A stretch of 64,000 nucleotides of DNA from Elusimicrobiaceae bacterium (GCA_045132175.1 JBGURU010000042.1:59887-123886), one strand, 5' to 3'; positions 737-53,250 are shown, numbered from the stretch's first letter. Notes: generated by a model not told the origin, from the letters alone. Translations and numbers: made by a program.

Positions 737-767
737 TTGACTTCTGTTTTTTTTTTTTTTCTATAAT
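737..767 (+). promoter_or_regulatory. Pilin-cassette promoter A: TTGACT-tctg-T14-c-TATAAT (19-bp spacer)
   Basis: -35-like 737-742, T14 at 747-760, -10 at 762-767. The same architecture recurs upstream of four other pilin genes. Followed by the conserved UTR ...ttgtataaag..aggagattatATG. Confidence 0.6.
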
Positions 768-817
768 TTCTATATATAAAGAATAAAAACCTTGTATAAA
801 GCGAAATAGGAGATTAT

Positions 818-1375
818 ATGAAATATAAATTAGGTTTCACCCTTATTGAAATGTTAGTTGTTGTGTTAATTATCGGTATTTTAGCGGCAGTTGCTTTACC
901 GCAATATCAATTAACCGTTGATAAAGCCGATTTCATGAAATACCAATCAATGGTTGCATCTCTTCGCGATGCTTATGATGATTATTCCTTAATTTACGGC
1001 GAAGGTACAAAAAATTTTGACGATTTATCTATTTCTTTACCAGATGATTTTACAAAAGTATATAATGTAGGTGGTAATGGGGCATCCGGTAGACAATGTT
1101 TTCAAAATTCCGAAATGTTTTGTTGTATGTCTGATTCTGGAGGAAGCCATTACGCCTCAATAAATTGCGGTAAAAATGATTTATCTGTTATATATGCGCA
1201 AAGTTTTTTTGCTTTTAATTATCAACCAACAAGCCGCCTAGGTTTATGTTTAGCAAAAGAAAATCACACAAGAGCAAACCGCTTATGTAATGTATTAGGA
1301 ACTAAAGGTAATATCGGTAATACATGGACACCCGAAGGTCATACAAATCGTTATCAAATTTATACTTTAAAATAA
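818..1375 (+). CDS. Prepilin-type N-terminal cleavage/methylation domain protein (type IV pilin / pseudopilin-like)
   Basis: N-terminus [31 protein letters not shown] has the G|FTLIE class III signal with Glu+5 and a hydrophobic helix. Cys-rich variable C-terminus; SD aggag 7 nt upstream. Confidence 0.85.
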   Translation: MKYKLGFTLIEMLVVVLIIGILAAVALPQYQLTVDKADFMKYQSMVASLRDAYDDYSLIYGEGTKNFDDLSISLPDDFTKVYNVGGNGASGRQCFQNSEMFCCMSDSGGSHYASINCGKNDLSVIYAQSFFAFNYQPTSRLGLCLAKENHTRANRLCNVLGTKGNIGNTWTPEGHTNRYQIYTLK

Positions 1376-1420
1376 ATTCCAAACACCAAATATAAAATCA
1401 TACAGTTTTGTTCACATAAG

Positions 1421-1454
1421 AAAATACCCCCACAGTTTTGCGAGGGTATTTTTT
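1421..1454. terminator. Bidirectional intrinsic terminator between pilin A and recA
   Basis: aaaATACCC-14 nt-GGGTATtttt hairpin flanked by A and T runs between convergent genes. Confidence 0.5.
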
Positions 1455-1467
1455 AATCAAAAATAAA

Positions 1468-2511
1468 TTATTTCTTTTTGCCGCTTGGGACAGGGGTGCC
1501 TGTGCCAAGATAAATTTCTTTTAATTTATCTTCAATTTGTTTGGCGACTTCGGGGTTGTCTTTCAAATATTGGCGGGCATTTTCTGCGCCTTGGCCTAAC
1601 TTTTCGCCGTTATAAATGAACCAAGTGCCGCTCTTTTCCACTACTTTACTGTCAACACCCATTGTGATTAAGCAAGATTCGCGGGAAATACCTTCGCCGT
1701 GAAGCATGGTAAATTCCGCTTGCCTGTACGGTGGTGCAACTTTGTTTTTAACAACTTTTGCGCGCACGCGGGTGCCAACAACTTGCTCGCCTTGCTTAAT
1801 ATTTTCAATTTTTCTTACATCAATTCTGACGGAAGAATAAAATTTCAAAGCAAGACCGCCGGGGGTTGTTTCGGGGTTGCCAAACATTACGCCGATTTTT
1901 TGGCGAAGTTGGTTAATAAAAATAATGCTTGTTTTTGTTTTATTAAGCAAACTTGTCAATTTGCGAAGGGCCTGCGACATTAAACGCGCTTGCAAACCGA
2001 CGTGTGAATCGCCCATTTCCCCTTCTATTTCCGCTTGCGGAACAAGGGCGGCGACGGAGTCAACAATAATCAAATCCACCGCGCCTGAAGAAACTAATTT
2101 TTCCGCAATTTCAAGGGCTTGTTCGCCGCTATCGGGTTGGGAAATTAAAAGTTCGTCAGTATTAACGCCGATTTTGCTTGCATAAACAGGGTCCAAAGCG
2201 TGTTCCGCATCAATGAAAGCAACAATGCCGCCGTTCTTTTGTGCTTGTGCGGCGATATGTAAACTTAAAGTTGTTTTACCGCCGGCTTCGGGGCCGTAAA
2301 TTTCAATAACGCGCCCGCGCGGTATACCGCCGATACCAAGTGCCAAGTCAAGTGATAATGCACCTGTCGGAATACACTCCACTTTTTTAACTACATTATC
2401 GCCAAGTTTTGAAATGGCGGTTTTACCGAAGGACTTTTCAATTTGTGAAATTGCAAGTTCCAAGGCTTTTGCTTTATCTAAAGTTGCTTTCTTTTCTTTA
2501 TCTTCTGCCAT
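1468..2511 (-). CDS. recA: Recombinase RecA
   Basis: 347 aa; [22 protein letters not shown] Walker [19 protein letters not shown]; full-length RecA architecture. Confidence 0.97.
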
Positions 2512-2519
2512 ATACTCTC

Positions 2520-51160: not shown

Positions 51161-52033
51161 ATGACAGTATTACTTGAAGGCAAGACACTTGCCAAACAAA
51201 TAAAAGAACCCTTACAGGAAAGGGCTTATAATGTTTATAAGAAAATCGGGCGCAAAGCAGCCCTTATCGGCTTTGGTTGGAAAGGCGACGAAGCCGGTTT
51301 TTATTATCTGAATAAAGAAGTGGAAGCAGCACGTAAAATAGGCATAGATGCAGATATTGTTTTGTTAGATGAAACAACACAACCAAAACAATTTTTTACT
51401 TTGCTTGATGCTATATTTTCAAGAAGTACTATTGATGCCCTTCTGATTGCAAGGCCTTTGCCTACGCAATTAAATAATTTAGATATTGCGGCAAATATTA
51501 ACCCTGCCCAAGATATTGACGGCATGGGCCTTGTCAGTATGGGCCGTTTGTTTATGTGCAAGACCTGGCAAGAAATAGAAAATTTAAAGACATTTATTCC
51601 TTGCTGTCCGAAAGCGGTTATGCGCTTGCTTGACTATCATAAAATAAACCTGGAAAGTGCTAAAGTGACAGTTATAGGAAGAAGTAATACCGTTGGTTCA
51701 CCTTTAGCAAAAATGCTGACGGCAAAAAATGCAACCGTCACCTTATGCCACAGTAAAACAAAGGACTTAAAAGAACTAACTTTAAACAGTGATATCGTTA
51801 TATCTGCGGCAGGCAAAATAAATTTAATTACAAAAGAGTTTGTAAAAAAAGGTACAATACTTATAGATGTTGCAACTGTAGTAAACGAACAAGGCAAATG
51901 TGTGGGTGATATGGATTTTGAAAATCTAAAAGATTTTTGCCCCATTTCACCTGTACCGGGCGGTGTCGGGCCTGTCACTCTTGCCTGTTTACTTGAAAAT
52001 ATTATTATTTCTGCTGAGAGGAAAATAAAATGA
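51161..52033 (+). CDS. folD: Bifunctional methylenetetrahydrofolate dehydrogenase/cyclohydrolase
   Basis: VIGRSNTVGSPLAKML, PVPGGVGPVT motifs; 290 aa. Confidence 0.9.
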   Translation: MTVLLEGKTLAKQIKEPLQERAYNVYKKIGRKAALIGFGWKGDEAGFYYLNKEVEAARKIGIDADIVLLDETTQPKQFFTLLDAIFSRSTIDALLIARPLPTQLNNLDIAANINPAQDIDGMGLVSMGRLFMCKTWQEIENLKTFIPCCPKAVMRLLDYHKINLESAKVTVIGRSNTVGSPLAKMLTAKNATVTLCHSKTKDLKELTLNSDIVISAAGKINLITKEFVKKGTILIDVATVVNEQGKCVGDMDFENLKDFCPISPVPGGVGPVTLACLLENIIISAERKIK

Positions 52034-52566
52034 AAAATATTTTTTATTTAATTTGTTCTTTTATTATTTTAACTTGTGTTTGCGGTTGTGTGTCAAGGGA
52101 AGGCTATGATGTTTCCTTTGAAAAACAATATAAGCAACTTGAGAGAGAAACTAAAAATTTTACCGAAAAAGATTTTTATGACGCAGAAAAACGTACCGCT
52201 GATGATAAAATGTCTATGTCCCCCGGGGATCGTTTTGCAACAGTTCAGATTGAAGCGCAAAAAGAAAGACGTGCGGCAAATAAAGTGGTTGGTTCAAACT
52301 ATTATTTTGAAGTTTATCCGGATAAAAAGGAAACTTATTCATATAATTCTTATAATGAAGTATGGTCCGATGCTTATCCCCAACAAGCATATAAAGAAAA
52401 TATCCGCTTAAAAGAAAAACCAAAAAAATATAAACCTGAAGAATATTCCGGTATTCCTGATGACGGTGCAGTGACGGAACAAGCCATCGCCGCCGCCGAA
52501 GAAGCAGCCGCAAAAGCAGAACAGGAAGCTGCTGATGAAGCCGCAAATGCTGCTGTATACGATTAG
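52030..52566 (+). CDS. Hypothetical lipoprotein with Ala/Glu-rich C-terminus
   Basis: 178-aa ORF overlapping the folD stop by 4 nt; N-terminal hydrophobic segment with Cys (IILTCVCGC). Confidence 0.5.
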   Translation: MKNIFYLICSFIILTCVCGCVSREGYDVSFEKQYKQLERETKNFTEKDFYDAEKRTADDKMSMSPGDRFATVQIEAQKERRAANKVVGSNYYFEVYPDKKETYSYNSYNEVWSDAYPQQAYKENIRLKEKPKKYKPEEYSGIPDDGAVTEQAIAAAEEAAAKAEQEAADEAANAAVYD

Positions 52567-52582
52567 TTGTTAATTTGTTAGC

Positions 52583-52614
52583 AAAACACCTGCGTAAAAA
52601 CGCGGGTGTTTTTT
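52583..52614. terminator. Bidirectional intrinsic terminator
   Basis: aaaaCACCtGCGtaaaaaCGCgGGTGtttttt between convergent genes. Confidence 0.7.
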
Positions 52615-52643
52615 GCTTTATTTTGTTTTCAATATTTTTATTT

Positions 52644-53177
52644 TTATCCGCCGATTTGAGTACATTGTCTGCCATTATCTGTGCCTGATGGTTTGCCTAA
52701 ACTTTTACAAATTTTTTCACCGTCATTTGTATATGGAGAACAAATTATTTTGCCCTGATTGCCACCGCAATAATCATATTCTCCATCCGGTTGAACCATT
52801 ATAATATCCAACAACTGTTTATATGCACAATAAACAGATCCATCATCTGCTCCGTTTGTTTCACAACTCCAAATATCATTATGACAATGTGGAGCATCTC
52901 CGCAAAGTTTATTTTCATAATCTTGCCAATCACTGGGCCAATTTGCTCCTAACATATCTCCGTCCGGAGAATCTCCTTCTTCCGTCAAATAACTGCCGGT
53001 GCGTAATTTATATTCCGCTAAACCGTCGTACCAACGGCGCATAAGAGGTAATATTGTTGCAACTCTTGCTTTCGTGACAGCCATTTGATACTGTGGCAAA
53101 GCGATGCCTGCCAAAATACCGATAATCAACACTACTACCAACATTTCAATTAAAGTAAAACCACTTTTGTTTTTCAT
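52644..53177 (-). CDS. Prepilin-type N-terminal cleavage/methylation domain protein (pilin-like); start corrected to MKNKSG|FTLIEM
   Basis: SD aaggag before ATG at 53177; intact paralog of the frameshifted gene at 25572-26107; C-terminal EKICKSLGK motif. Confidence 0.85.
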   Translation of the reverse strand: MKNKSGFTLIEMLVVVLIIGILAGIALPQYQMAVTKARVATILPLMRRWYDGLAEYKLRTGSYLTEEGDSPDGDMLGANWPSDWQDYENKLCGDAPHCHNDIWSCETNGADDGSVYCAYKQLLDIIMVQPDGEYDYCGGNQGKIICSPYTNDGEKICKSLGKPSGTDNGRQCTQIGG

Positions 53178-53219
53178 ATAATCTCCTTTATACAATACTT
53201 TCATTTACTGCATATAGAA

Positions 53220-53250
53220 ATTATAGAAAAAAAAAAAAAATGCAAGTCAA
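53220..53250 (-). promoter_or_regulatory. Pilin-cassette promoter E: TTGACT-tgca-T14-c-TATAAT (19-bp spacer)
   Basis: A14 on the plus strand at 53227-53240; lies only ~20 bp after the glpQ-like stop. Confidence 0.6.

Follow-up and report, generated by a model that had tools for sequence, protein, structure and literature searches.

Expression of several bacterial surface structures is switched by simple repeats lying between the −35 and −10 boxes of a promoter, for example the poly-A tracts of the vlp genes in Mycoplasma hyorhinis, the poly-G and poly-C tracts of porA and opc in Neisseria meningitidis, and the TA repeats of hifA/hifB in Haemophilus influenzae, while the poly-C promoters of fim2/fim3 in Bordetella pertussis are bound by the activator BvgA where a −35 box would be. 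Repeat-mediated phase variation has so far been worked out almost wholly in cultured pathogens. Here, a similar promoter design is described from an uncultured gut and rumen commensal phylum, the Elusimicrobiota, where it sits on a dispersed family of pilin genes. The DNA analysed (the window) is a 64-kb stretch from an Elusimicrobiaceae bacterium in which five prepilin genes, named here pil818, pil11113, pil26107, pil33930 and pil53177 after the positions of their start codons, each follow a cassette of −35 and −10 boxes separated by a long run of T. On balance, the evidence favours, if not strongly, a hypermutable spacer homopolymer whose slippage would alter the −35/−10 distance, and with it the transcription of each gene, independently for each paralog, giving rise to pilus heterogeneity.

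The five cassette sites were read directly, together with a homopolymer census of the window. The copies share the consensus CTTGAC(T/A)-4 nt-pure Tn-(c/g)-TATAAT and are arranged as follows.

737..767, + strand: core promoter of pil818, with −35 TTGACT at 737-742, spacer tctg+T14+c (19 bp; T14 tract at 747..760) and −10 TATAAT at 762-767
11163..11193, − strand: core promoter of pil11113, with −35 TTGACA at 11193-11188, spacer tcca+T14+g (19 bp; T14 tract at 11170..11183) and −10 TATAAT at 11168-11163
26149..26180, − strand: core promoter of pil26107, with −35 TTGACT at 26180-26175, spacer tctg+T15+c (20 bp; T15 tract at 26156..26170) and a degenerate −10, TAAATT, at 26154-26149
33971..34002, − strand: core promoter of pil33930, with −35 TTGACT at 34002-33997, spacer tctg+T15+c (20 bp; T15 tract at 33978..33992) and −10 TATAAT at 33976-33971
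53220..53250, − strand: core promoter of pil53177, with −35 TTGACT at 53250-53245, spacer tgca+T14+c (19 bp; T14 tract at 53227..53240) and −10 TATAAT at 53225-53220

An earlier, sequence-only reading of this DNA had reported tracts of T14, T14, T15, T15 and T14 and spacers of 19, 19, 20, 20 and 19 bp (in the order pil818 to pil53177); all five tracts proved exact in position and length on re-reading, and recounting the spacers gave the same values. Its assignment of TATAAT to every cassette held for four copies but not for pil26107, where the box has become TAAATT through a 1-nt deletion relative to TATAAT. When the five upstream regions were aligned, conservation set in sharply at CTTGAC and extended to the ATG, in agreement with the conserved untranslated region (UTR) and Shine-Dalgarno (SD) sequence that had been placed after the cassette. 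The tracts stand out by their length: A/T run lengths in the window end at 8, the next being the five tracts of 14-15, no run of at least 12 T occurs anywhere in the window outside these tracts, and only ~0.01 runs of at least 14 T would be expected from base composition. A T-rich spacer as a genome-wide promoter style was considered and rejected, as other intergenic promoters are without long runs. The cassette is unusual for this bacterium.

As the five window copies are paralogs, they do not amount to five independent events, and the retention of the architecture across species is the stronger evidence. Cassette promoters were gathered with one GTDB scan, one metagenome pattern scan and eight exact-protein contig look-ups. 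The GTDB scan, anchored on the UTR/SD/ATG string, returned one relevant locus (L007) and two chance matches, the only GTDB genome with the string being an uncultured Elusimicrobia metagenome-assembled genome (MAG). The metagenome pattern CTTGAC-N5-T6-N0-16-TATAATTT recovered mostly generic promoters, the relevant loci among the matches listed being L080, L099 and L119. The promoters of relatives read as follows.

L007: TTGACA-tcta-T15-c-TATAAT
L080: TTGACG-T14-c-TATAAT
L099: TTGACT-tgc-T15-g-TATAAT
L119: TTGACT-tg-T13-g-TATAAT
P0071: TTGAAT-cg-T12-ct-TATAAT
P0056: TTGACA-aatcg-T12-gc-TACGAT, with a paralog carrying T7
P0018: tract of T16 or T14
P0019: TTGACA-tcg-T15 or T13-CATAAT
P0004: tract of T16 or T15
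P0063: TTGACA-aagc(c)-A10/A13/A15-c-TA(T/C)ACT, poly-A on the sense strand

Across these relatives the run is always pure and its length variable (T7 and T11-T16, with A10-A15 in a rumen lineage), and purity is retained in species whose pilins are only 40-60% identical. None of the 19 promoters contains an interrupted tract, apart from the syntenic ortholog P0027, in which the homopolymer has been lost altogether, leaving a canonical TTGACA-17-TAATAT promoter. In 250 kb of Elusimicrobiaceae DNA, all but one of the runs of at least 11 T are the cassette in front of a prepilin gene, and the one remaining run belongs to the poly-A version of this promoter, found in front of the P0063 pilin. In the rumen Elusimicrobia lineage that carries this version (L153-L158 and L160), the poly-A spacer is found ~200-215 nt upstream of the pilin start, after an intrinsic terminator and before a ~190-nt leader, with spacers of 15, 19 and 20 bp. 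The genes behind these promoters encode surface proteins, namely prepilins of the PF07963 family and, in L170 (13249-14700, − strand), a 459-amino-acid (aa) signal-peptide protein with no Pfam domain and no pilin motif. The latter is preceded by TTGTAG-cgg-T15-a-TAAAAT (spacer 19 bp), showing that the homopolymer promoter design is not restricted to pilins.

The sequence-only reading had argued that tract length changes over evolutionary time and had proposed a comparison of related genomes and MAGs, which bore the claim out: lengths of the pure runs differ both across species and between near-identical orthologs. Ortholog sets were aligned over 1,200 nt around the start codon, or over a shorter span where a contig ended. 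In four sets the tract was the sole difference, with 0 mismatches over 1,070-1,200 nt: P0071 (T12 in nine sequences and T11 in one, the 0-mismatch comparison being T11 in L129 versus T12 in five others), P0018 (T16, T14 and T14), P0019 (T15 in three and T13 in two) and P0004 (T16 in one and T15 in three). In the fifth set, P0063, alleles of A10 (four sequences), A13 (two) and A15 (one) represent tract changes of 3-5 bases in sequences that otherwise show 0-12 mismatches per 1,200 nt, and there is linkage of A13 and A15 to single-nucleotide polymorphisms (SNPs) in the flanks. The tract is thus the fastest-changing site between near-identical strains, as slipped-strand mispairing predicts. Both alleles of P0019 and of P0004 were recovered by two different assembly pipelines, making assembler bias unlikely, though some of these assemblies may share source samples. 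In addition, the first base of the T14 tract in the P0018 promoter is also the first base of two Logan unitigs, each from a different run (position 1 of L151 and L152), which is consistent with a de Bruijn graph that branches at mixed tract lengths, or at slippage errors. Short-read contigs often end at or just 3′ of the cassette (position 1 of L151, L152, L171 and L002-L004).

The tract is bordered in the window copies by near-consensus TTGAC(T/A) and TATAAT boxes, whose promoter function we infer from their sequence, the TTGAC box being a near-consensus sigma-70 −35. A standard promoter scan with spacers of 16-18 bp found no alternative promoter upstream of pil33930, and the hexamers located 17 bp upstream of TATAAT (ACTTCT and GACTTC) are not −35-like. 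Similarly, no TGn extended −10 was present at the pilin cassette, and inspection gave no match to a sigma-54 or a Bacteroidetes −33/−7 promoter. The T run was also considered as a terminator tail, a reading rejected for want of a preceding hairpin: the 63-nt segment with the tract at its 3′ end folds no better than shuffles (z = +1.2). The leader 3′ of the −10 box folds into a small hairpin immediately ahead of a strong AGGAG (z = −7.4, −4.9 and −2.7 in three copies). The hairpin of the pil33930 5′ UTR (33931-33965) has a folding energy of −5.1 kcal/mol (z = −7.4), and that of pil53177 (53178-53214) reaches −6.4 kcal/mol (z = −4.9) with G-U-compatible changes relative to pil33930; covariation is weak (1 compensatory pair, consensus −3.7 kcal/mol), and it is the single-sequence folds that beat shuffles. 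The outcomes of the promoter scan, the terminator analysis and the leader folding fit a transcription start site directly after TATAAT.

As a baseline for the lineage, TTGACA/TATAAT-like pairs without a tract were counted in 215 kb of Elusimicrobiaceae DNA and compared with shuffles. These pairs peak at a spacer of 17 bp (16 observed versus ~7.8 expected), while the tract-bearing pairs in the same scan have spacers of 19-21 bp only. The 17-bp peak of ordinary promoters, together with the 17-bp spacer of P0027, points to canonical promoter geometry in this lineage, so that spacer length should matter for transcription. Judging from the general behaviour of sigma-70 promoters and this preference for 17 bp, pilin output would be expected to depend on tract length.

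The tract most likely acts as a phase or rheostat switch on a sigma-70-type promoter whose TTGACT/A and TATAAT boxes are set apart mainly by the unbroken T run. A run of 12-16 T would slip during replication, continually producing cells whose tract has gained or lost one or two T, and each step would shift both the distance and the rotation between the boxes and, consequently, the amount of pilin mRNA. Each pilin paralog would then possess its own heritable and reversible expression dial, whether a phase switch with ON and OFF states or a rheostat with graded output, and the population would become a mixture of pilus and surface compositions that could help against phage, against the host or when the niche changes. 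Tract length changes readily yet stays close to the mode of each locus, a combination that would be expected if length affects fitness.

Several observations weigh against this switch, at least in its simplest form, foremost among them the distribution of spacer lengths. When each distinct spacer value was counted once per promoter across the 19 promoters, one value fell at 14 bp, three at 15, three at 16, none at 17, one at 18, ten at 19, five at 20 and two at 21. The 17-bp spacer was therefore found in 0 of 19 tract-bearing promoters and the mode is 19 bp, a distance reached through at least five flank/tract combinations (4+T14+1, 3+T15+1 on two occasions, 5+T12+2 and 5+A13+1). Tract length compensates for flank length, implying selection on the total −35/−10 distance. 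In the T12 sets (P0071 and P0056), T12 is also kept despite diverged flanks, both in L133/L134 versus L128 (37 mismatches and 15 indels) and in L139 and L145 versus L138. A 19-bp spacer reached in many ways, and a T12 kept in diverged strains, make 19 bp look selected and not a random OFF state. Furthermore, with all five window copies at 19-20 bp, a simple model with ON at 17 bp would make all of them OFF. The one strain comparison for the window's own loci (L001, 10 mismatches in 1.2 kb) showed T15 versus T15; exact-protein look-ups for the window pilins gave few usable loci, pil53177 being without a record and the Logan contigs of pil818 and pil11113 ending 16-24 nt upstream of the ATG, short of the tract. 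Homopolymers of 13-16 are, moreover, error-prone in Illumina libraries and assemblies, and some of the ±1 differences could be technical. The phase switch proposed by the sequence-only reading therefore gains from the comparative data on tract instability, but its simple expectation that T12-13 is ON is cut against by a 19-bp mode and a 17-bp spacer that is never seen. The 19-20 bp consensus may represent attenuation or OFF, as the state favoured most of the time, or the working optimum of an unusual, perhaps activator-assisted, promoter.

A possible, though less probable, explanation for this distribution is a fixed, non-canonical promoter class without a switch, in which the homopolymer would be a structural spacer tuned to ~19 bp, either because A-tract DNA is rigid or because the geometry depends on an activator as in the Bordetella fim promoters, and in which the polymorphism would be a by-product tolerated under purifying selection. 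The 19-bp mode attained by so many combinations, the absence of 17 bp and the retention of T12 between diverged flanks would all follow from such a design, as would possible activator sites adjoining the −35 box, namely CGACGAT or its complement in the window species and AGGYCYAAATGCTC in L170. However, a structural spacer would tolerate other bases within the run, yet every tract found was unbroken and the promoter that has lost its tract, P0027, stands at 17 bp. The existence of both T and A versions argues against a strand-specific readout, and one required geometry is hard to reconcile with spacers of 15, 19 and 20 bp among the alleles of one protein and of 16 and 18 bp among those of another. 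A related and more doubtful proposal goes further, holding that these are a distinct promoter class with a selected working distance of 19 bp, achieved via an activator or by a holoenzyme that adopts an unusual geometry on rigid poly(dA:dT); the run would then serve as an evolvable length-adjuster that selection resets to 19 bp time and again, and would be a lineage-wide design for Elusimicrobiota surface-protein genes, in poly-T and poly-A form and for pilins as well as other secreted proteins, not an ON/OFF switch.

It is very unlikely that the length differences are sequencing or assembly artefacts and that the shared tract merely reflects recent duplication of a cassette whose length is irrelevant. 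In favour of this reading, short-read assembly is known to handle long homopolymers poorly, the ends of several contigs fall in or close to the cassette, and the window copies are paralogs. However, consensus error is an unlikely source of differences of two bases (T16/T14 and T15/T13) or of 3-5 bases (A10/A13/A15), every allele was recovered more than once, from several assemblies and with both pipelines, A13 and A15 are tied to flanking SNPs, and the pure run persists where pilins have diverged to 40-60% identity. Least credible of all is a more distant 5′ promoter whose transcript would include the T run, either as the tail of a terminator or attenuator or as a poly-U leader element. Several cassettes do have a recurring motif, TTTCYCWAAAAA...CTTGC, at 60-100 nt upstream, but the tract has no hairpin ahead of it (minimum free energy no better than shuffles, as above), near-consensus −35 and −10 boxes flank it in all species, and conservation begins at the −35 box.

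The genes controlled by the five window cassettes are listed below.

818..1375, + strand: prepilin gene pil818, 185 aa, starting MKYKLGFTLIEMLVVV; PF07963
10562..11113, − strand: prepilin gene pil11113, 183 aa; PF07963, with rplU next
25573..26107, − strand: prepilin gene pil26107, frameshifted, stopping as assembled at 25655 (150 aa)
33475..33930, − strand: prepilin gene pil33930, 151 aa; PF07963 and PF16732
52644..53177, − strand: prepilin gene pil53177, 177 aa

All five products carry a prepilin signature at the N-terminus, K/L-G|FTLIE(M/L)..., in which the leader ends in G and is followed by Glu at +5 and a hydrophobic helix; the PF07963 matches of the window pilins and their relatives are precomputed annotation, and homologs of pil33930 are labelled as Elusimicrobiaceae or Candidatus Avelusimicrobium prepilins by their sources. 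The pilin genes are single insertions dispersed among genes that otherwise serve housekeeping functions (recA, clpB, aspS, hisS, gyrA, gyrB, topA, ispH, bamA and rplU). In pil26107, the reading frame is broken by a +1 frameshift at an A6 run (25685-25680), as read from the sequence; with A5 in place of A6, the frame reads through to 25573 and matches the paralog pil53177 to its end. With its TAAATT −10 box and out-of-frame A6, this copy (25573-26180, − strand) resembles a decaying or switched-off gene, and the A6 could mark a true pseudogene or a second site of slippage, or could have been introduced in assembly.

Two shared motifs were observed upstream of the cassettes. Several pilin cassettes are preceded, at a distance of 60-100 nt, by the motif AAATTYCYCWAAAAA(N2-3)CTTRC, as is rplU (680-700, + strand; 11225-11245, 26225-26245, 34050-34070 and 10500-10525, − strand; also in L007 and L099); the motif is a candidate UP-like element, regulator site or relic of cassette duplication. 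In most cassettes the heptamer CGACGAT, or its complement ATCGTCG, is found just 5′ of the −35 box, with no fixed orientation or spacing (708-716, + strand; 11200-11210 and 26183-26195, − strand; also in L007, L080, L099 and L146), while in L170 the other shared motif, AGGYCYAAATGCTC, takes its place adjoining the −35 box. CGACGAT could be a transcription-factor half-site, and AGGYCYAAATGCTC likewise a possible activator site.

Two further prepilin genes in the window, at 9102 and 15703 (both + strand), have neither tract nor cassette and possess wholly different leaders. The leader of the 9102 pilin (9017-9101) is conserved across species, being found in L099 (− strand, upstream of the pilin at oriented position 4693) and in L007 (+ strand, upstream of 3267). 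It contains a terminator-like hairpin with a T7 run (~9017-9036), followed by a perfect 8-bp stem formed by TTTGCTCC (9077-9084) and GGAGCAAA (9093-9100) that is predicted to sequester the SD sequence, and may represent an uncharacterised riboregulator or attenuator. The leader of the 15703 pilin (15520-15700) contains G/C-rich inverted repeats (ccccacccc...ggggtgggg and cctctccgcc...ggggagagg) and is conserved in another species upstream of the P0016 pilin (L146/L147/L148, a 166-aa pilin). An Rfam scan of the window identified one tRNA only, with no credible match in either of these leaders. A tRNA gene (20848-20920, + strand) is overlapped at its end by the opposite-strand gene for a GGDEF-EAL protein with a dCache sensor domain (20902-23208, − strand). 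Cyclic-di-GMP signalling is a frequent controller of pili, and this protein may be relevant to the regulation of the pilins that lack a cassette.

Pili are attachment organelles, possibly organelles of DNA uptake, and common phage receptors. If the tracts do act as switches, the Elusimicrobiaceae would display combinatorial pilus variation, and the tract would be a ready marker through which metagenomic reads could reveal population dynamics within a host; the 19-bp mode, in turn, poses a testable question on promoter geometry. A search of the literature for Elusimicrobia pilins and phase variation found no report. The mechanism is known from pathogens, and the Elusimicrobiota are a phylum, with a lifestyle, from which it is not known to have been described.

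Considered by analogy, vlp, porA/opc and hif appear to be the closest systems in function. As in these, the −35 and −10 boxes of surface-structure genes are separated by an unbroken simple repeat, whose slippage alters the spacer, and, as with vlp, several paralogs each have a tract of their own, allowing combinatorial expression. In contrast to these systems, the present one belongs to an uncultured gut commensal of the Elusimicrobiota, concerns type IV prepilin-like proteins and is known from sequence alone, and its modal spacer in the assemblies is 19 bp and not the 17-bp ON length. The Bordetella fim promoters are similar in carrying a homopolymer of ~13-15 in the promoters of fimbrial or pilus subunit genes that switch independently, and in the unusually long distance from the upstream recognition site to the −10 box. 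However, fim depends on BvgA, whereas the Elusimicrobiaceae promoters have a near-consensus sigma-70 −35 box and only candidate activator motifs.

A further comparison is offered by sabA of Helicobacter pylori, in which a promoter T-tract ranging from T5 to T22 among strains gives graded, multiphasic output (PMC4081817). This tract adjoins the −35 box on its upstream side and alters the alignment of UP-like elements with the core promoter, and a tract rheostat of this kind has been proposed as a general mechanism for bacteria with few regulators (PMC4081817). The Elusimicrobiaceae promoters resemble sabA in having a poly-T (or poly-A) tract of ~13-17 and strain-variable length in the promoter of a surface-protein gene, but here the tract is located downstream of the −35 box, inside the spacer, and not at the sabA position, and its strain-to-strain spread is narrower (mostly ±1-2, up to 5). 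With slipped-strand switches of the spacer type, the Elusimicrobiaceae promoters have in common a long pure repeat, which for a homopolymer means about 9 or more, a length polymorphism that in relatives exceeds the background divergence, and surface proteins as their targets.

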